From NCBI GenBank assembly GCA_012267415.1, contig JAAXGN010000008.1:719-64718 (forward strand): 64,000 bases of DNA, given 5' to 3'. Positions within the stretch are counted from its first letter, which is position 1. Each line of letters opens with the position of its first letter. Shown one piece after another: positions 10,972 through 64,000 of the stretch. The notes beneath the pieces were generated by a model. The model saw only the letters and a list, made by a program, of their open reading frames with translations. It had not been told where the DNA came from and did no database searches. The translations under genes were made by a program, and so were the position numbers. This DNA is from Candidatus Poribacteria bacterium (GTDB lineage Bacteria > Poribacteria > WGA-4E > WGA-3G).

Positions 10972-11469
10972 CTATCTATTTCCAACCAATTTGTTTGTTA
11001 TATTTCTTATTCTTGGGTTAAATGTAATGTAAAAAGCAACAATTACAGCAATAGTGCCGAATATCAAATCAAACCACTCCATACGGTTTTTCATCAGTTC
11101 AAATTTAGGACTTCCGTAATAAAGGTTTTTGACAATAGGTACGGCTTGTTCTTCCGTTAAGTCCCGATCTTGCATATATTGTTCAGTCATTTGTGCAATT
11201 GCATTCCAATGAACATCAAGGTATTTTCCTACAAAAATACCAACCACTGCGAATATGGCTGCTCCAATAGAGACCAACAACCAATGCATTTTCTCATCCG
11301 CATCAATTGCATTGACACATGTGAGTAGCATTCCTATTCCAGTGAACGCACCGATACAAACTGCGATAAATCCAAAAGTACTGCCAGTCCACTGAATGTA
11401 TTTTGCCCAAAGGATACCACCCAATACTGCACCGACGAGACCACCGAAAGGAGCTATGATAATTTTCAT
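10972..11469 (-). CDS. hypothetical integral membrane protein (about 4 TM segments)
   Basis: 165-aa hydrophobic ORF. Its start overlaps the gatA stop by 4 nt (ATGA-type coupling). Confidence 0.6.
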
Positions 11470-12947
11470 GAGTTGTCCTCATGTAAGAGTATTTCAGGTT
11501 TTTTACGATGATGTTCAGTATTTTGTTCATAAGTATAAGCAACCCGTAGGACTGATGCCTCTGCAAACGGTTTTGCAAGCAATTGTAGACCTACAGGTAA
11601 ACCACTTTGGACAAAACCACACGGGACGGAAATGCCAGGCAAACCCGCGTGACTCGCAGGGGTCGTCATCACATCACACATATACATCTGTAACGGGTCT
11701 GCAGTTCGTTCTCCGATTTTGAATGCAGGTGTAGGTGAAGTTGGCGTTGCAATCACGTCAACCTTCTCAAAAGCATCATCAAAATCTGACTTTATGAGTG
11801 TACGTACCTTTTGAGCTTTTTTATAATACGCATCTTGATACCCCGTACTCAATGCAAAAGTTCCAAGCATAATACGTCTTTTTACCTCTTGTCCAAAACC
11901 CTCACTGCGTGTCTTCTTATACATATTGATTAAATCAGCAGGGTCTTCCGTTCTATAACCGTAGCGTACTCCATCATATCTTGCAAGGTTCGCACTTGCT
12001 TCTGCGGGTGCGATGATATAATATGTTGCAATCGCATAATCTGTGTGAGGCAGAGAAATTTCAACAATTGCCGCTCCCAGTTTTTCTAATTCAGCAATAG
12101 CAGTATGTACACAGTCTGCTACATCTGTGTCTAAACCTTCAGCAAAATACTCCTTTGGCATCCCAATTTTCATGCCTTCTATGTCATTGATGAGAGACTT
12201 CGTGAAATCTGGGACAACAACATCAACAGAAGTTGAATCCATCTCGTCTTTGCCACAGAGCGCGTTTAGAACCAAAGCACAATCGGTCACGTCTTTAGTG
12301 AACGGACCAATCTGATCCAACGAAGAAGCAAAAGCGATAAGACCATAACGTGAAATCCGTCCGTAAGTTGGTTTCATGCCAACAACCCCACAGAGTGCAG
12401 CAGGTTGACGAATAGAACCCCCAGTATCTGAACCCAATGACAATATTGCTGTATCCGCTGCTACGACTGCTGCCGAACCGCCACTTGACCCACCGGGAAT
12501 CGTCTCTAAATCCCAGGGATTATGCGTTATCTGATATGCGGAATTTTCCGTAGATGACCCCATTGCAAACTCATCCATGTTCGTTTTGCCTATCATTACG
12601 ACACCTTGCTGATGAAGTTTTGTCATGACAGTCGCATCGTAAGGCGGGACAAAGTTGCTGAGTATTTTTGATGCACATGTTGTCCGGATATCTTTGGTGC
12701 ATATCACATCTTTTATTGCTATTGGTATGCCAGCAAGTGGTGGCATTTCATTTCCGTTCTGAAATCCAACGTCTGCCTTGCTCGCTTGCTCTAAAGCTGA
12801 CGCCTTTGTTAATGTCAAGTAGCCATTCACACTCGGTTCAACCGCATCTATCCGTGCATATATTGATTCAGTCAATTCTACAGCAGTGATTTCACGTTCC
12901 TTCAGTTTTTCGTGTAGTTCGTGCACTGTTAATTGATATAGAGACAT
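11466..12947 (-). CDS. gatA: Asp-tRNA(Asn)/Glu-tRNA(Gln) amidotransferase subunit A
   Basis: Amidase signature [13 protein letters not shown] and [25 protein letters not shown]. It lies immediately downstream of gatC. Confidence 0.95.
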
Positions 12948-12958
12948 TCAACTACTCC

Positions 12959-13255
12959 TTACGTCACATCAATTACTCTAGGAACGCCAAAGTAGCCTTC
13001 GGCTGTTTCAGGTGCGTTTTCAAGGGCGGCATCAATAGGTAACGATTTTTTTACGACATCAGGTTTTGTTATATTTTGAAGCGGATGTATATGTGATGTA
13101 GGTGGAACATCTTCCGTATCCAATTCATTCAGTTTGCCAATATAATCTAAGATTCGACCGAGTTGTTCGGTGAAATGCTGTGTCTCTTCTGGATCAAATT
13201 CAAGTCGCGCTAAGTTTGCTACGTGACTTACATCTTCAGGTGTGATCGTTGCCAT
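12959..13255 (-). CDS. gatC: Asp-tRNA(Asn)/Glu-tRNA(Gln) amidotransferase subunit C
   Basis: 98-aa ORF with ITPEDVSHVANLARLEF..EE and a position directly upstream of gatA. Confidence 0.88.
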   Translation of the reverse strand: MATITPEDVSHVANLARLEFDPEETQHFTEQLGRILDYIGKLNELDTEDVPPTSHIHPLQNITKPDVVKKSLPIDAALENAPETAEGYFGVPRVIDVT

Positions 13256-13385
13256 ACCAATTAAACCTTCCTATATTTTTTTCATAATATATGTGCACTT
13301 CATGGCACTACGGGCAGCCCATCTAAAAATGGACCAGCCCCTACATACAAACGGATAAGTGTCTACCATAATTCTAAGTTTTACT

Positions 13386-15551
13386 TTATACCGCATGCAA
13401 GGGTGCTAATTCAACATCGAATTGCTTGGAACCTGCTCTATCAAACCTAACGACTACATAGGTATTTTGACCGTATTCTTTGAGTTTAACTACCTTTCCC
13501 CTGCCAAAATTGGGGTGGAATACAATTTGATCAACAGTGTATAAGTTGTCTTCTTCCTCTTCAACATATCTAATTTCTTGTTGCGTCAATGAGGAATGGG
13601 CTGAGTTGTAACGGTCAACATGTTTGATAAGATGTGGCGATATTTCTTCAATGAAACGTGAAGGGATTCTATGATCTGTTCCTCCCCAGGTTCTCCGTGA
13701 ACTTGCATGGACAAGATAGAGTTGTTCCATGGCTCGTGTAATGCCAACATAACATAGCCTTCGTTCCTCCTCTAAATCTGCTTCGGCACTGACAGATCGT
13801 TGATGTGGCAAAAATCCTTCCTCCATACCGACGATAAAAACAAACGGAAATTCTAACCCTTTGGCACTATGTAATGTCATCAACGTCACTACATTGGTTT
13901 CATCGGTGTTATCATCATCTTCCATCGTATCAATATCTGCGATAAGAGCGACGTTCTCCAGATAATCTGAAAGTGTCGGTTGTTCAGCGATCATTTCATA
14001 TTCACAGATTGCGTTCATCAGTTCATCAATATTCTCAACCCTGTTTTGTGCTTCTATGGTGCGCTGTTCTTTAAAGTTATCACGATACCCTGTTGTATTT
14101 AGGATATGTTCAAGCACTTCTGCTGGTAAGTCATCTGCATCATACGGGTCAAATAATTTCGCGAATCGGCGTATTTTTCCTTTTATGCCAGCGTTTATTT
14201 TTGGAATTTCGTCAACGCGATCTATTGCTTCAATGAGCGGTATTTCTTCGTTATCAGCAAAGGTCATAAGTCTTTCAAGTGATGTTGCCCCGATACCGCG
14301 TGTCGGCACATTTATGATACGTCTGAGACTCATTGAGTCAAAAGGATTACACATCACACGCAGATATGCCAATAGATCCTTAATCTCCATGCGGTCATAG
14401 AAACCGAGTCCGCCAACAATCTGATAAGGTATATTTGCCGCGCGCAATGCCTCTTCAAAAACTCTTGATTGTGCATTTGTCCGGTAAAAGATAGCGAAAT
14501 CTCTATAATCAACTCCTTCAGCATTCCAATCCTCAATTTTTGTTCCAACAAAACCGGCTTCATCGTTCTCATCCATCGCTTCGTAGCAGGTGATGGGTTC
14601 TCCTTCTTCATTTTTTGTCCAGAGTTTCTTCGGTTTCCTCGCTTTGTTGTTCTGAACGACGCTCCATGCTGCATGTAATATATTCTGTGTTGATCGGTAA
14701 TTCTGCTCCAAGCGTAGTACATGTGTGTTGGGATAATGCGTCTCAAAATTGAGTATGTTATGTATGTTTGCGCCTCGGAAACCGTATATAGATTGGTCAT
14801 CATCACCGACGACACAGACATTCTTTTTGTCACCTGCCAGTAGACGTACTAACTCATATTGGCATTTATTTGTGTCTTGATACTCATCCACAAGCACATG
14901 TAGGAATTTCTGATTGTAATATTTTAGCACTTCGGGAAATTTATTCAATAACGTTACAGTAAAGTTGAGCAGATCATCAAAATCTAATGCGTTGTTCTTG
15001 CGAAGTGCTTCCTGATATAGAGGGTAAACCTCTGATACGACCTTTTCATAGTATCCTTCGGCGATATTCTCATAGTTTGCTGGCGAAATGTTGTTGTTTT
15101 TTGCTTTGCTTATCAGATCATGAATGGTTCGTGGGTTATACTGTTTATCATCTAATCCAGCGTTTCTGATGATATCCTTAACGACTGTAACTTGTTCGCC
15201 TTTATCGTAGATAGTAAAGTTCTTAGTAAAACCGTCGAGTTTTTCGATATCTCTGCGTAAGATACGTGCACAGGTTGCGTGGAAAGTAGAGACCCATAGG
15301 TTTTTACCGATCCCTTCTTCAACGAGTACATCCAATCTCTCTTTCATTTCGTTTGCAGCTTTATTGGTAAAAGTAACAGCAAGTATTCGGAATGGAGAGA
15401 CGCGGTGGTGTTTTATGAGATATGCGACTCGGTGTGTGATAACGCGCGTTTTACCGCTCCCCGCACCGGAAAGTATCAGAAGGGGACCATCAGTGTGCAG
15501 CACAGCTTCACGTTGCACATCATTTAAGGAACTCAAAAGTTTATCGGACAA
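13386..15551 (-). CDS. pcrA: ATP-dependent DNA helicase PcrA/UvrD family
   Basis: SF1 motifs GAGSGKT, VDEYQDTN, LEQNYRST, TLHSAKGLEFPFVFIVG and YVGITRA. Confidence 0.93.
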   Translation of the reverse strand: MSDKLLSSLNDVQREAVLHTDGPLLILSGAGSGKTRVITHRVAYLIKHHRVSPFRILAVTFTNKAANEMKERLDVLVEEGIGKNLWVSTFHATCARILRRDIEKLDGFTKNFTIYDKGEQVTVVKDIIRNAGLDDKQYNPRTIHDLISKAKNNNISPANYENIAEGYYEKVVSEVYPLYQEALRKNNALDFDDLLNFTVTLLNKFPEVLKYYNQKFLHVLVDEYQDTNKCQYELVRLLAGDKKNVCVVGDDDQSIYGFRGANIHNILNFETHYPNTHVLRLEQNYRSTQNILHAAWSVVQNNKARKPKKLWTKNEEGEPITCYEAMDENDEAGFVGTKIEDWNAEGVDYRDFAIFYRTNAQSRVFEEALRAANIPYQIVGGLGFYDRMEIKDLLAYLRVMCNPFDSMSLRRIINVPTRGIGATSLERLMTFADNEEIPLIEAIDRVDEIPKINAGIKGKIRRFAKLFDPYDADDLPAEVLEHILNTTGYRDNFKEQRTIEAQNRVENIDELMNAICEYEMIAEQPTLSDYLENVALIADIDTMEDDDNTDETNVVTLMTLHSAKGLEFPFVFIVGMEEGFLPHQRSVSAEADLEEERRLCYVGITRAMEQLYLVHASSRRTWGGTDHRIPSRFIEEISPHLIKHVDRYNSAHSSLTQQEIRYVEEEEDNLYTVDQIVFHPNFGRGKVVKLKEYGQNTYVVVRFDRAGSKQFDVELAPLHAV

Positions 15552-17736: not shown

Positions 17737-19398
17737 ATGGAAGAAAATGAGCAGATTACCTCCACGGAACAGAACCAGAATGTTGCTCGTGATGCGGCGA
17801 TTGTTAGTTTAGCAGTGATGGGTTCACGTTTGCTTGGTCTTGCCCGTGAAATGGTGATCTTTTACTATTTTAAGACGAAACTTGCCGCGCCTGCCTTTCA
17901 TCTTGCATTCCGCATCCCTAATTTCCTGCGAGATATGTTCGGTGAGGGTATTCTAAGCAAAGCGTTTATCACTACCTTCATCGCTACTGAAAAAGAGGAG
18001 GGGGAAGCAGCCGCTTGGGACCTTGCAAATCGTATTTTTAATCTGGTTGTAATTGTCCTGACCGGTATTGTCGTTTTGGGTATCGTGTTTTCCCCTGCTA
18101 TAGTTGATGTTTTAGCGCGTGAAAACTTTGATGAGGTATTAGAGCCGGGAAAACACTATGGGTTTGATACTAAAGTTGAGTTGACGATCTATCTAACCCA
18201 ATTGATGTTCCCTTATCTTCTGTTTGTATCCCTTGCTGCTATTGCCATGGGACTCCTTAACAGTAAAGGTAGGTTTGGTATACCTGCTTGTGCCTCCTCG
18301 TTCTTCAACCTGAGTTCACTTGTTATCGGCATTAGCGGATATTATCTATTTCAACGTATAGACATGCACCCGACAACGGGGATGGCAGTTGGTGTTCTTG
18401 TTGGGGGTATACTTCAATTTCTTATACAAGTTCCATCAATGTACCGTGTCGGATATCGGTATAGGCCGCTGCTTAGTTTTACAGAACCGCGGGTCGTCCA
18501 AGTTCTCAAATTAGTGGGTCCGGCTATTTTAGGAGTTGCTGCAGTCCCGATTAATCAACTGACCAATACATGGTTTATCACATCTGGTGATGAATGGTTA
18601 GCCTGGATTCAAGGTGCGTATCGCATCATGCACTTTCCACTCGGCATATTTGGTGTGGCAATATCTACAGTCATTTTACCGCAACTTGCTAAGTATGCAC
18701 ATTCAGACAGTATGGCAGAGTTCCGAGATTCGTTATCTTATGCCTTACGTTTGATGCTTACAGTTATTTTGCCAGCGTCAATTGGTCTGATGATATTGGC
18801 AGAACCGATCTGTAGATTACTCTATGAACGCGGCGAATTTACGGATACAGATACAGTCGCAACAGCACATGTTCTGTTCGTTTATGCATTTGGCTTGTGT
18901 GGATTTTCTGCACTGAAAATCGTTACGGACGGTTTTTATGCTTTCAAAGATATACGTGCACCTGTAATCGTTAGTCTATGCGGTGTCGCTCTTAATATCT
19001 GTATGAACTACATGTTTATATTTCAAGGGTTTTGGTTGAATGAACGCGCGATAGTGTTTTCTACTGTGACAACTGTAACACTGAACAGTGTCGTTTTGTT
19101 GTTTCTACTGAGACGTAGAATCGATAAAATAGGGTTTAATTTAGTGTTTAAGGTTGCATTGAAAGTACTATGTGCATCTGTGGTGATGGGGGTGGTATGT
19201 TGGGTATCCAATGGGTTTATAGAAAAAGATTGGCTTGGAACAGAGGGTATAGTGTCGCGAACTCTAAATGTATTCCTCCCGATTGGATTTAGTGTCCTAA
19301 CGCTTGCGGGGATGTATAAAGCATTAAAAGTATCGGAGTTTGATGACATATTGAACATTGTTAAACAGAGATTTCAAAAGCAAATTATTGTAAAGTGA
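17737..19398 (+). CDS. murJ: lipid II flippase MurJ/MviN
   Basis: 553-aa polytopic membrane protein with N-terminal GSRLLGLAREMVIFYYF and a MurJ-like length and TM pattern. Confidence 0.85.
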   Translation: MEENEQITSTEQNQNVARDAAIVSLAVMGSRLLGLAREMVIFYYFKTKLAAPAFHLAFRIPNFLRDMFGEGILSKAFITTFIATEKEEGEAAAWDLANRIFNLVVIVLTGIVVLGIVFSPAIVDVLARENFDEVLEPGKHYGFDTKVELTIYLTQLMFPYLLFVSLAAIAMGLLNSKGRFGIPACASSFFNLSSLVIGISGYYLFQRIDMHPTTGMAVGVLVGGILQFLIQVPSMYRVGYRYRPLLSFTEPRVVQVLKLVGPAILGVAAVPINQLTNTWFITSGDEWLAWIQGAYRIMHFPLGIFGVAISTVILPQLAKYAHSDSMAEFRDSLSYALRLMLTVILPASIGLMILAEPICRLLYERGEFTDTDTVATAHVLFVYAFGLCGFSALKIVTDGFYAFKDIRAPVIVSLCGVALNICMNYMFIFQGFWLNERAIVFSTVTTVTLNSVVLLFLLRRRIDKIGFNLVFKVALKVLCASVVMGVVCWVSNGFIEKDWLGTEGIVSRTLNVFLPIGFSVLTLAGMYKALKVSEFDDILNIVKQRFQKQIIVK

Positions 19399-19517
19399 AT
19401 AATTAATGGGACATTTTAACATTTACGAAGGATACCCAGTGTAGGGGCGAGGTCACCTCGCCCGTTGTGAAGTCAGTCAATATTTTTACTGGCATTAATT
19501 CTAAAGTTCGCTATAAA
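19393..19517. mobile_element. MITE-like element with a central GTAG hairpin; paralog of 56325-56406
   Basis: The left end is agtgaataattaatgggaca, which overlaps the murJ stop codon. The core is GTAGgggcgaggtcacctcgcccgt (19441-19465). The right end is ctggcattaattctaaagttcgctata. The block 19434-19515 is roughly 85 percent identical by eye to 56325-56406. Confidence 0.65.
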
Positions 19518-19532
19518 TGAGTTGAGGGGAAA

Positions 19533-20312
19533 ATGTTAACGAAACGAATAATTCCATGTTTAGATGTCCGCGCTGGAAAGGTTACAAAAGGTATTGCCTT
19601 CAAAGGAAATGTAGATGTTGGTGATCCTGTTGAAATGGCGCGGTTTTACTATGAGAGCGGGGCAGACGAACTTGTCTTTTACGACATCACTGCTAGTAAC
19701 GAAGGACGAGATATTATGATTGATGTTGTCTCTTCTGTTGCAGCAGAAATATTCATACCGTTTTCTGTCGGTGGCGGCTTGCGGACGCTTGAAGACATGC
19801 GGCGCGTCTTACTGGCGGGAGCAGAGAAGGTCAGCATAGATTCAGGGGCAGTACGGAATCCTCAGATAATCGCTGAAGGAGCACATGCATTCGGAAGTCA
19901 ATGTGTTGTCTTGAGTATGCAAGTAAAAAAAGTTCCAAAACATGAGAAGATACCGAGTGGATATGAAATTTTTATTGATGGTGGACGAACACCCGTCGGT
20001 TGGGATGCGTTGGCGTGGTCGGTACGTGGTGTTGAGTTAGGGGCAGGTGAAATCGTGGTAAATAGTATTGATGCTGATGGCACAAAAGCTGGATATGAAT
20101 TGGAGTTAACAGGTGCGATCGCTGACCTTGTACCAGTCCCTGTTATTGCCTCTGGAGGAGCCGGGAATCCTCAGCATCTTCGTGATGTATTTGTTGAAAG
20201 TAGCGCAGATGCGGCAATTGTTGCATCAATTACACATTATGGGGAATTCACCATTGCAGGAATTAAAGACTACCTAAAGTCTCACAACGTCAGTATGCGG
20301 GATACTTGGTAA
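19533..20312 (+). CDS. hisF: imidazole glycerol phosphate synthase cyclase subunit HisF (or HisF-like)
   Basis: [15 protein letters not shown] and ASGGAGN. No hisH or hisA neighbour is present. Confidence 0.8.
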
Positions 20313-20394
20313 TCGGTAAAATGCAACGACATTCAAGCAATATTAAATAATGAATTATCAATTTTCCGATTTTCTTGCAGGTGCCGACGAACCC

Positions 20395-20420
20395 GTAGGG
20401 GCGGGGTCTCCCCGCCCGTC
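20395..20420. repeat. GTAG-footed REP-like hairpin
   Basis: GTAGgggcggggtctccccgcccgtc, embedded in a wider inverted repeat aatattaaata / tatttaatatt. Confidence 0.7.
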
Positions 20421-20600
20421 ATTGCATATTTAATATTCAAACCTGCTTAAAGAAATAGGTTGTAAAACCAGGCAAAGATTGTGTATAATTTTGATGAACA
20501 AACAGCACATAACGTACAAAGCTAGCTGTTAGATGTAGTTGGATTTTCCCTTCAACATTGCAACAAGTTACTTACTCCAGTTCTATAAAAGAGTACTAAA

Positions 20601-58191: not shown

Positions 58192-58272
58192 TCTTCAGTC
58201 CCGTAGGGACGATATGTTTATAGAAGAACGTGCAGTTAACCCTCTTTAGTCCCATAGGGACGATATGTTTAT
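58192..58272. repeat. Two 30-bp direct repeats separated by 21 nt
   Basis: tcttcagtcccGTAGggacgatatgtttat (58192-58221) and tctttagtcccatagggacgatatgtttat (58243-58272), with 2 mismatches. Each contains the small palindrome gtccc-nnn-gggac. Confidence 0.8.
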
Positions 58273-58440: not shown

Positions 58441-58606
58441 TGAAAGTATAGTGGAATGGACAATTAATGGGACACTTCTGTAGTGCAAACTTTTAGTTTG
58501 CGTCTCATCGGCACAAACTAAAAGTTTGTGCTACAATTTCTGTTGTTCGTTATGGTCCCGAAGCAGGTTTATCAAAGTGTCCCAATAATTTGAAAGTTCA
58601 CTATAT
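58441..58606. mobile_element. MITE-like element with imperfect terminal inverted repeats and two inverted GTAG hairpins
   Basis: The left end is tgaaagTATAGTGgaatggacaattaaTGGGACAC (58441-58475). The right end is GTGTCCCAataatttgaaagttCACTATAt (58577-58606). The internal hairpins are GTAGtgcaaacttttagtttgc (58480-58501) and the inverted copy gcacaaactaaaagtttgtgCTAC (58511-58534). Confidence 0.65.
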
Positions 58607-59116: not shown

Positions 59117-59145
59117 TTGAATATATTAATACATCTTACTATAAT
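59117..59145 (+). promoter_or_regulatory. near-consensus sigma70-type promoter for the PLD-SNF2 operon
   Basis: TTGAAT (59117-59122), a 17-nt spacer, then TATAAT (59140-59145), 45 nt upstream of the 59190 ATG. Confidence 0.5.
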
Positions 59146-62234: not shown

Positions 62235-62273
62235 TCTGTATTGCTTATTTTTAGAAGGAGGAAGTCTATCAAG

Positions 62274-62711
62274 ATGAAAAACGACATTTCACATGAATCT
62301 AATACTATTCACGATTTTGAATCAATAATATCTCTTTTACGAAATAGGTTGAACTGGCCAATTTCTGATAACCAATCAAATTTTGATGATCTTACCCATT
62401 TCTGGTCTCCTGAGAACCTTGAACTTGATCCTAAAACCGAGAAACGCATTATTGGTTGTTGGCAGGTAAGAATTCTTAATCTCAAATTTTTCAATAGTAA
62501 GCAACCGTGGGGAATTTTCATCGTCCAATTTGAAAATAATGTACATATTGATAAATCAAGCACTCTCTTGAAAAGAGTTTTAAGAGGTCTTGTTGATAGG
62601 CGGGGTCGTAGTGCTTCACTTCCTTTCTGGCGTTACGACAGACTCCTCTTTATCTGCACAACAGAAGATTTTCAAAATTTCGGTTTTGTACTTCATGGGA
62701 AAGAAAAATGA
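62274..62711 (+). CDS. stand-alone paralog of the N-terminal domain of the downstream methyltransferase
   Basis: 146 aa from the ATG at 62274 (AGGAGG upstream). It aligns with residues 1-150 of the 62774 ORF: QPWGIFIVQFEN / QPWGIFFLQFNS, RVLRGLVDRRGR / RVLRGLVERRDR, and LLFICTTEDFQNFGF / LLFICTTPNYQQFAF. Confidence 0.7.
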   Translation: MKNDISHESNTIHDFESIISLLRNRLNWPISDNQSNFDDLTHFWSPENLELDPKTEKRIIGCWQVRILNLKFFNSKQPWGIFIVQFENNVHIDKSSTLLKRVLRGLVDRRGRSASLPFWRYDRLLFICTTEDFQNFGFVLHGKEK

Positions 62712-62773
62712 CCTTATCGTTGATGATTGTACTGAACTGAACAATTTTAAATTGAAAGCTTGAGGGAAAACGT

Positions 62774-64000
62774 ATGCCCAATATTACACCAAACGACATC
62801 CAAAACATCCGTGACTTTGATACGCTTTTAGACTTCTTCCGTGATAAACTTGATTGGCACATCCCCGAAGACTTTGAACTTGAAGATATGACTTTTTCCT
62901 GGTCCGCCGAAGACCTTGACCTTGACGAACCCACTGAAGAACGCATCTTCTATTGCAGACAGTTACCACCTTTCCCACCCATCCGATATACATTGTTTGG
63001 AGAAGCAACACAACCGTGGGGCATATTTTTCCTACAATTTAACAGCGAACATATCTATCGAACTACACTACGTCGTGTGCTGCGGGGATTGGTAGAAAGA
63101 CGCGATCGTGACCCAAACCTACCTTCTTGGAAACATGACCAACTCCTCTTTATCTGTACCACACCCAACTATCAACAATTTGCTTTCGCCAATTTTGCTG
63201 CAAATGAAAATTGGAGACGCTCAGTCCTTTCCATATTCTCTTGGGAACAGGGAGATACACACATCCGAACGCTATGTGAGTATAACCTACCTGCACTTGC
63301 TTATCCAAGCGATGGATTTCCAAATGACGAAGCATGGCTGAACGCGTGGAAAGAAGCATTTGATGTTGAGATCGTAACCGATAAGTTTTTCGCCGACTAT
63401 CAACGCGTTTTTTCACGGGTTGAAGCAGCTGTAACAGGTATTCCCGATAGCCTTGAAGAAAAAAAACGACTCTATACGCAACGGCTTTTTAACCGATTAA
63501 TGTTCTTACGGTTTATTGAAAAGAAGGGATGGTTGACCTACAACGGTAACCGTGAATACTTGCGCGCCATGTTTGATGCTACGGAAGCAGAAACCGATGA
63601 AAACTTTCTCAATGACCGACTCTATTGGGCTTTCTTCAATGGACTTGGTACTCCTGGGGGTGCACCTAACAACATACCTGAGGTTGTTGAACGACGGGGA
63701 GAAGTCCCATTTCTCAACGGTGGACTCTTTGAGATGCAGGACGACGATGCGCGCGGCACTGTCCATATTCCTAACGATAAATTTGACGAAATCCTAAAGC
63801 TTTTTGAAAGGTATAACTTCACGGTAACCGAATCCACACCGCTTGACGTTGAGGTAGCAGTAGACCCGGAAATGCTTGGTAAGGTGTTTGAAGAACTTGT
63901 TACCGGTAGGCACGACACAGGTAGCTACTATACCCCGCGTCCTGTTGTCTCCTTTATGTGTCGCGAAAGTCTGAAAATCTGCCTCCAGAATAAAACCGAT
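62774..64000 (+). CDS. COG1002/Eco57I-type (type IIG / PglX / DrmMI-like) N6-adenine DNA methyltransferase, N-terminal 409 codons (3-prime end outside window)
   Basis: The ORF is not in the supplied track because it has no stop in the window; I translated it by hand from the ATG at 62774 (GAGGG upstream). Motifs LFNRLMFLRFIEKKGWL, FLNGGLFE, ERYNFTVTES, VDPEMLGKVFEELV and GSYYTPRPVVSFM. The catalytic motifs would lie beyond 64000. Confidence 0.8.
   Translation, partial: MPNITPNDIQNIRDFDTLLDFFRDKLDWHIPEDFELEDMTFSWSAEDLDLDEPTEERIFYCRQLPPFPPIRYTLFGEATQPWGIFFLQFNSEHIYRTTLRRVLRGLVERRDRDPNLPSWKHDQLLFICTTPNYQQFAFANFAANENWRRSVLSIFSWEQGDTHIRTLCEYNLPALAYPSDGFPNDEAWLNAWKEAFDVEIVTDKFFADYQRVFSRVEAAVTGIPDSLEEKKRLYTQRLFNRLMFLRFIEKKGWLTYNGNREYLRAMFDATEAETDENFLNDRLYWAFFNGLGTPGGAPNNIPEVVERRGEVPFLNGGLFEMQDDDARGTVHIPNDKFDEILKLFERYNFTVTESTPLDVEVAVDPEMLGKVFEELVTGRHDTGSYYTPRPVVSFMCRESLKICLQNKTD

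Follow-up and report, generated by a model that had tools for sequence, protein, structure and literature searches.

A free-standing copy of a methylase N-terminal domain as a new accessory subunit of an ATP-dependent restriction-modification-like system in Candidatus Poribacteria

In type IIG restriction enzymes, the PD-(D/E)XK nuclease is normally found at the N-terminus, and in the type ISP enzymes LlaGI and LlaBIII the order is nuclease, ATP-dependent motor, coupler, gamma-methylase and recognition domain (PMC3874165). In type-2 BR systems, which are related to bacteriophage exclusion (BREX), a predicted effector that joins an HKD endonuclease to a Swi2/Snf2 helicase occurs with an N6-adenine methylase, a DUF499 ATPase and DUF3780 (PMC12839542). 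Here, we analysed a locus at the end of a 64,000-nucleotide (nt) stretch of a Candidatus Poribacteria genome (contig JAAXGN010000008.1; the whole stretch is called the window), where three co-oriented genes on the + strand encode an HKD(PLD)-SNF2 helicase-nuclease, a small protein and an MmeI-like methyltransferase (Table 1). The name S is used both for the small free-standing open reading frame (ORF), 62274-62711, and for its orthologue family. We conclude that S is a new, added accessory subunit of an uncharacterised ATP-dependent restriction-modification-like system.

In its layout, the methylase resembles the MmeI-family type IIG/IIL enzymes: an N-terminal domain of ~180 amino acids (aa) is joined by a helical connector to a gamma-class N6-adenine methyltransferase core, which has the MmeI/Eco57I-type fold and NPPY, and a TaqI_C-type target-recognition domain follows. 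The PADLOC profile REase_MTase_IIG matches the window methylase from about aa 190 on (6.9e-25). On contig L001 the protein continues past 803 aa and includes the motifs DPACGSGAYLL and NPPY, and full-length orthologues of 1054-1057 aa match the Pfam families MmeI_Mtase, Eco57I and TaqI_C. Unlike in the MmeI family, however, the domain of about 170 aa that stands where the nuclease domain of type IIG enzymes usually lies (hereafter the N-domain) is not a PD-(D/E)XK nuclease, so that this nuclease is missing in cis, and an extra free copy of the domain exists. Residues 1-190 of the methylase gave no match to Pfam, MmeI_N included, or to PADLOC.

The 1014-aa helicase matches the Pfam families PLDc_2 (aa 28-174), SNF2-rel_dom, ResIII and Helicase_C, and the motifs HAK...GSSN, GSGKT, DEAH and QRIGRLDR are visible in its translation. 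By sequence, its HKD, Walker A, DEAH and motif VI are intact, as are the S-adenosylmethionine-binding and NPPY motifs of the methylase. Its best match in the defence libraries is the PADLOC candidate profile 'HKD+Snf2' C3a139 (8.8e-66), and the closest solved sequences are SNF2 remodellers and RapA. The HKD-SNF2 protein is presumed to be both an ATP-driven motor and the DNA-cleaving subunit.

The gene and domain order of the locus equals that of the type ISP enzymes, and in both cases an asymmetric site read by a single recognition domain is expected. Whereas type ISP enzymes are single polypeptides, the functions are here split over two or three polypeptides, encoded by separate genes with stop codons and Shine-Dalgarno sites between them; the nuclease is HKD/PLD instead of Mrr-like and the motor is of the SNF2 type. 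We know of no type ISP enzyme with a free paralogue of its coupler. Type III systems (Mod plus Res, e.g. EcoP15I) likewise have a separate methylase/recognition subunit and a helicase-nuclease that relies on it for targeting, but Res has a PD-(D/E)XK nuclease and a different superfamily 2 helicase, Mod is of the beta class and dimerises via its own core, and type III systems have neither an N-domain nor a third small subunit. Class 1 of the defence island system associated with restriction-modification (DISARM; DrmD, DrmMI, DrmA/B/C) also has a SNF2 helicase beside a large N6-adenine methylase, and we observed partial matches to the DrmD and DrmMI profiles. However, the PLD domain is here fused to the helicase, which scores 125 bits against the NCBIfam DrmD model (cutoff 610) and is thus not DrmD, and no DrmA or DrmB (DUF1998) genes were found in the 10-kb flanks of eight related loci. 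With type-2 BR the locus shares the N-terminal HKD endonuclease fused to a Swi2/Snf2 helicase and the pairing with an N6-adenine methylase. It differs in that the methylase is MmeI-like with a novel N-domain and that S has no family match and is thus unrelated to DUF3780; furthermore, PglZ, DUF499 and DUF3780 are absent from the Pfam lists of neighbour genes at related Poribacteria loci, which sets the system apart from BREX and BR, although the genes downstream of the window's own operon lie beyond the window end. Our literature searches found no published description of the two-gene module of HKD-SNF2 protein and N-domain methylase, of the N-domain or of S.

The initial annotation had described the small ORF as an end-to-end match to the methylase N-terminus, with its own strong ribosome-binding site (AGGAGG) and without a PD-(D/E)xK motif, and all three points hold. 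With BLASTP, S and the methylase N-terminus share 62/143 identities (43%) and 64% positives at E=4e-35; the alignment spans S end to end, corresponds to methylase residues 1-139 and contains every sequence block that had been quoted. The AGGAGG is read at 62256-62261, and the ORF has 145 aa plus stop. When comparing S to Pfam, NCBIfam and PADLOC, we found no family match. Conserved positions shared by the two copies are mainly hydrophobic or aromatic; the polar ones are Q63, R100, R104, C128 and T130 (methylase numbering), with R100 replaced by K in about 20% of S. As the conserved columns of the N-domain and S contain no acidic residue and no invariant Lys, a catalytic nuclease role of the domain is unlikely. 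S retains 28 of the 34 positions within aa 1-141 that are at least 90% conserved in the N-domain, compared to 1 of 14 beyond aa 141, the stretch where the N-domain runs on into the methylase body.

In total, 70 short S homologues were found. In a scan of GTDB with one genome per species, tail-bearing S occurs only in Candidatus Poribacteria (14 species loci, L011-L024). Among the Poribacteria species loci that bear the helicase or S, 14/15 carry S, as do further loci from metagenomes, whereas the Poribacteria operon L025 lacks it. Intact tailed S ORFs are present in at least 14 Poribacteria species, down to about 42% identity, and the Poribacteria that carry S are sponge symbionts. Outside this phylum, short matches to the N-domain are frameshifted methylase fragments and not S. 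Neighbour joining of 77 sequences places S in one clade, whose sister group is the methylase N-domains of Poribacteria, and leaves all other phyla outside; this indicates a single old duplication in the Poribacteria lineage, after which the free copy diverged faster. By Nei-Gojobori estimates, the median ratio of non-synonymous to synonymous change (dN/dS) is lowest for the helicase (0.085), higher for the methylase N-domain (0.10) and highest for S (0.19), and non-synonymous change in S runs at about 2.3 times the rate of the N-domain.

Judging from its sequence, the window ORF is clearly an S orthologue (87% identical to P0002), though truncated, since S orthologues have 159-189 aa and in a few cases up to 249 aa. 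A DNA alignment with the syntenic contig L009 reveals a deletion of two nucleotides at about 62690/62691 (GTA^CTTC in the window vs GTACGCTTC in L009). L001 (ENA) and L002 (Logan), two contigs that possibly come from the same or sister samples, have the identical deletion. The deletion lies outside any homopolymer run, which makes a sequencing error unlikely. The S family ends in a strongly conserved C-terminus, ...GF(A/V)xFxGxKxRPIVDDYIPLxxF(K/R)LD, and no other part of the family is as well conserved as the tail motif RPIVDDYIPLxxFKLD. In the window, this tail (FMGKKNDLIVDDCTELNNFKLKA) is out of frame and can be read in the +1 frame up to a TGA at 62761-62763, 10 nt before the methylase ATG, which leaves the window copy short of the full-length tailed form of about 160-190 aa. 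With the frame restored, S would end 10 nt before the methylase ATG, as it does in L009 and at most orthologous loci. According to the AlphaFold2 (AF2) model of an intact orthologue, the lost segment comprises the last beta-strand plus one short helix. The frameshift looks recent, since the window lineage otherwise has four private amino-acid changes compared to six in L009; one of the four is a P-to-S change in the nearly invariant WPIP. The local allele is probably weakened or recently inactivated by the loss of its last beta-strand and tail, and we put recent inactivation at about even odds. A programmed +1 frameshift at AAA-TGA-C that would restore the tail was considered and rejected, as there is neither a strong slippery site nor a stimulator and a recent deletion is the plain explanation. 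The initial annotation had missed this truncation, the confinement of S to one phylum and the cassette exchange described below.

The frameshift and the Pro-to-Ser change of the window copy, the one Poribacteria locus without S and the elevated non-synonymous rate would suit S being a non-functional relic or pseudogene of a partial 5' duplication of the methylase, as the initial annotation had proposed as its alternative. It had named homologous loci that never carry the free copy, relaxed selection and a failed significance test of the similarity as grounds for giving up a functional gene. What we found is a significant similarity, a free copy that recurs at homologous loci and purifying selection on the S family (dN/dS 0.19); the real duplication is thus confirmed, whereas the relic is rejected for the family. 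Intact ORFs across 14 or more species, the tight operon spacing with a Shine-Dalgarno site of its own and the lack of an excess of amino-acid changes in the window lineage relative to L009, frameshift aside, likewise leave the relic very improbable. The sequences stem from metagenome assemblies, so that the similarity or the extra ORF might in principle be an artefact of a collapsed or chimeric repeat. However, the two copies are only 43% identical in protein, and the same arrangement recurs in complete chromosomes of 5-6.7 Mb among metagenome-assembled genomes and in many independent assemblies; this recurrence refutes an artefact, to which we give next to no credence. On the evidence of these sequences, we conclude that S is a conserved, selected and lineage-specific gene family and not a relic.

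The S gene furthermore evolves differently from its neighbours. When comparing the window to L016, nucleotide identity is mostly 90% or more over the helicase and the methylase, with few local dips, whereas it is 56-74% exactly across the S gene; for the same pair, dN is 0.35 for S and 0.06 for the helicase. Two deep types of S can be distinguished: the short type A is found in the window, L009, L010, L003 and L012, and type B, with an insertion of 20-70 aa in one loop, at all remaining loci. The distribution of the two types conflicts with the relationships of the flanking genes. In these sequence comparisons, S behaves like an exchanged cassette. Some long variants (P0022, P0027, P0023, P0056 and P0047) have 219-243 aa, of which up to about 70 aa have been added to the loop that connects the first two core strands; in P0023 and P0056, this loop contains a repeated GMDxExIASxxGMDxxxVTxxL segment with sub-threshold helix-turn-helix matches. 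Such loop matches, which in a few long type-B inserts concern HTH_35, HTH_40 and HTH_7 (E 0.004-0.03, all below gathering scores), would fit a role of S on nucleic acid, such as reading DNA or modified bases or regulating the operon in the manner of a controller, and the domain also contains several invariant Trp, Gln and Arg residues. We regard this role as quite improbable, because the core of S has no recognisable DNA-binding fold, the HTH-like insert is missing from most S including that of the window, and no conserved operator-like repeats were found between the operon genes. No helix-turn-helix family match was obtained for the window S or a typical S, which is thus not a Controller (C) protein by its families.

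To assess how widespread the N-domain is, a profile of S and N-domains was searched against 1.84 billion representatives, with clusters at 50% identity. The search returned 1,493 clusters at E<=1e-3, and nearly all span residues 1 to about 260 of proteins of 1,000-1,550 aa. N-domain proteins are rated type IIG-like by PADLOC, some have PglX-like C-terminal parts, and the names of the cluster members are all empty or 'hypothetical protein'. We sampled ~50 loci outside Poribacteria, from Planctomycetota, Verrucomicrobiota, Acidobacteriota, Ignavibacteriota, Dehalococcoidia, Bipolaricaulota, Armatimonadota and one archaeon. Almost all of those with upstream sequence have an HKD-SNF2 homologue of the window helicase (mostly E<1e-190) directly 5' of the N-domain methylase. 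About half of these helicase-methylase pairs are within 110 nt of each other, and the others are parted by unrelated hitchhiker genes such as ORF6N-, YhcG- and Fic-like genes, toxin-antitoxin pairs and C5-methylase-like ORFs. The same two-gene arrangement of HKD-SNF2 protein and N-domain methylase is present in the window. We conclude that the N-domain and the HKD-SNF2 gene are linked almost obligately. A tblastn search of the PLSDB plasmids with the N-domain gave no match, and a search of IMG/VR for phage-borne S-like decoys gave a single contig, which carries an ordinary helicase-methylase pair. A separate observation concerns P0271 (336 aa), an N-domain methylase fragment from another lineage, in which ~65 aa are duplicated in tandem inside the N-domain; this is a second, independent case of a duplication that affects the domain.

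AF2 predicts an alpha/beta fold for the intact S orthologue P0002 (predicted local distance difference test score, pLDDT, 82.5), and helices and strands follow one another in the same order in the model of methylase aa 1-409 (pLDDT 85.7). The predicted order alpha-beta-beta-beta-alpha-beta may be compatible with a degenerate restriction-endonuclease fold. Foldseek was run with the S model on PDB and BFVD and with the 1-409 methylase model on PDB; neither yielded anything better than E=0.02 or a nuclease match, and a profile search of the PDB sequences with the domain gave one chance match only. An alignment with MAFFT pairs the S tail with the invariant RTLCEYNLPAL of the methylase; we did not rely on this pairing, as the AF2 secondary structures suggest that the tail corresponds to the preceding beta-strand.

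How could the free copy act? In the mechanism that we propose, the helicase-methylase pair would form an ATP-dependent restriction-modification enzyme similar to a split type ISP or a type III system. The N-domain would dock the target-recognising methylase onto the HKD-SNF2 motor-nuclease, and cleavage would presumably be passed to that separate protein. A role of the N-domain as a coupling module is suggested by the fact that nearly all sampled copies with upstream sequence sit just 3' of an HKD-SNF2 homologue. S would occupy the N-domain's partner surface on the HKD-SNF2 protein in trans and would thereby modulate how restriction is coupled to target recognition, most likely by restraining or buffering it; that S uses the same surface is suggested by its retention of the 28 core positions and its loss of the part that runs into the methylase body. 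We thus consider a regulatory or decoy subunit that competes for the partner of the N-domain, which the initial annotation had put forward as a possibility, the best reading of these sequences, because the near-obligate pairing and the conserved core both point to it. We estimate a probability of roughly 0.4 for the full proposal, in which the methylase is coupled to the motor-nuclease through the N-domain and S occupies the same partner site in trans.

The position of S bears on its main rival, according to which S pairs with the methylase's own N-domain as a pseudo-dimer and bridges or caps methylase assemblies instead of competing for the helicase. Paralogous domains often heterodimerise, which counts for this explanation, as do the conserved domain core retained by S and the constant company of S and N-domain in intact Poribacteria operons. 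MmeI-type enzymes are, moreover, thought to act as dimers (PMC3874165). However, S starts 31-480 nt past the helicase stop in all 17 Poribacteria operons measured, and where the operon is split S stays on the helicase side: 640-4170 nt of unrelated DNA separate S from the methylase in 7 of the 17 operons, and in none is there such DNA between helicase and S. These insertions, all seven of them on the methylase side, hold IS605 TnpB, toxin-antitoxin-like genes and a sigma-factor-like gene. Furthermore, no N-domain residues co-vary with the type of S, and other phyla manage without such a partner. We therefore regard the pseudo-dimer as unlikely.

Several observations weigh against S as a competitor for a docking site on the helicase. 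The system occurs without S in all other phyla and in the Poribacteria operon L025, so that S is dispensable for the core mechanism. The role of the N-domain could instead be dimerisation, DNA binding or the reading of modified bases. With the S types A and B, two helicase columns and no N-domain columns co-segregate, compared to three columns in a control partition, which gives no sign of co-adaptation. Lastly, dN/dS between the window and L009 is 0.45 for S and thus higher than for the neighbour genes, and since the window's own copy is truncated, its function has possibly been lost there.

The methylase gene and the junction 5' of it vary in further ways among related loci. In several Poribacteria, the methylase gene contains an insert of 43-82 nt with a poly-G tract (G8-G12) between '...YLRxLF' and 'ENFLNDRLYW' (L005 10745-10923, with the same sequence in L006, L007 and L023; L008 10745-10911; L198 6745-6884; L199 6745-6921). 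It is absent from the window, where the matching uninterrupted site is 63512-63608. The insert breaks the frame in every assembled copy examined (+1, +1, +1, +2), the sequence 3' of the tract encodes a conserved peptide in the shifted frame, and about 20 protein clusters of ~290 aa end in '...ISGGGG'. Phase variation by homopolymeric tracts is known for type III and type IIG methylase genes. The insert looks like such a switch, though an assembly error at the homopolymer is also possible. A metagenome scan with the insert motif ATAAGCGGGGGGGG proved too unspecific, as 0/80 returned loci had the methylase. L008 and L198 carry orphan N-domain methylases: neither HKD-SNF2 nor S lies in the upstream sequence, which covers 10 kb for L008 and 6 kb for L198. 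The two genes are interrupted at the poly-G tract, and a fragment of an IS1 transposase follows the one in L198; they appear to be decaying or switched-off copies. L012 has two tandem N-domain methylase genes (11442-14654 and 17799-20495) 3' of a single helicase and a single S; a stop interrupts the first methylase gene, and the second extends beyond the end of the locus.

The junction 5' of the methylase is a hot spot of insertions, both in the helicase-methylase gaps of L026-L076 and in the S-methylase gaps of L003, L004, L010, L012, L018 and L019. The inserts include ORF6N/KilA-N-like genes, YhcG-like PD-(D/E)XK genes, Fic, PIN, HicAB and other toxin-antitoxin pairs as well as IS605 TnpB, and two C5-methylase-like ORFs are inserted at the junction of L072.

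Within the window, the conserved block of the operon has its left edge at ~59100, where nucleotide identity to the syntenic contig L009 rises from ~40% to ~90%. The promoter candidate listed in Table 1 is weak evidence, as such sites are no more frequent in the region than expected from shuffling. The gap between the S stop and the methylase ATG is 62 nt; intergenic gaps are short, and no terminator-like sites were found on the + strand between the operon genes.

Table 1. Features of the three-gene operon and its control region; positions refer to the window.
Feature	Position	Strand	Basis and remarks
Sigma-70-like promoter candidate TTGAAT-17-TATAAT	59117..59145	+	10/12 matches; just 5' of the operon; weak evidence
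HKD(PLD)-SNF2 helicase-nuclease, 1014 aa	59190..62234	+	Pfam, PADLOC, motifs
Shine-Dalgarno AGGAGG of S	62256..62261	+	Read from sequence; 12 nt before ATG 62274
S, truncated free paralogue of the methylase N-domain, 145 aa + stop	62274..62711	+	BLASTP to the methylase N-terminus
2-nt deletion (CG) vs orthologues	62690..62691	+	Frame shift, early stop 62709-62711; DNA alignment with L009
Out-of-frame (+1) tail remnant FMGKKNDLIVDDCTELNNFKLKA plus stop	62692..62763	+	Within ORF 62590-62763; matches the tails of P0002 and P0005
Methyltransferase N-domain, about aa 1-180, parent of S	62774..63313	+	AF2 element order same as S
MmeI-like gamma-class N6-adenine DNA methyltransferase, first 409 aa	62774..64000	+	Gene continues past the window end

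Upstream of the operon, an intergenic region contains two direct repeats of 30 nt (58192-58221 and 58243-58272) that are 51 nt apart and 93% identical, each with a small GTCCC(G/A)TAGGGAC hairpin. A separate 22-nt inverted repeat at 58479-58535 is 91% complementary. This repeat region is not conserved in L009. The segment 52516-57972 encodes an FG-GAP/ASPIC repeat protein, a member of the FGE-sulfatase family, a TPR protein and an NAD(P)HX repair enzyme of the YjeF type. It is syntenic with the Poribacteria contig L009, and this synteny assigns the window to the genome of a sponge symbiont of Candidatus Poribacteria.

If the coupling proposal is true, the ~170-aa domain would be the missing link that couples target recognition to a separate HKD-SNF2 motor-nuclease. 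It would then mark a restriction-modification architecture that is common but has no name, represented by about 1,500 protein clusters from many poorly cultivated phyla. Tuning a restriction complex through a free, selected copy of its docking domain would be unusual. A more far-reaching version, which we consider rather doubtful, is that the N-domain has a fold not described before and characterises a widespread, unclassified group of split ATP-dependent restriction-modification systems in which an MmeI-like methylase is paired with an HKD-SNF2 motor-nuclease, that S is a Poribacteria-specific mimic of the docking domain acting as gatekeeper or decoy, and that the exchange of S cassettes might reflect an arms race, e.g. 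with phage inhibitors of the docking interface. Operons with S and without S offer a simple experimental handle on what the domain binds. The finding adds to the picture of a heavy and fast-changing investment in defence in sponge symbionts.

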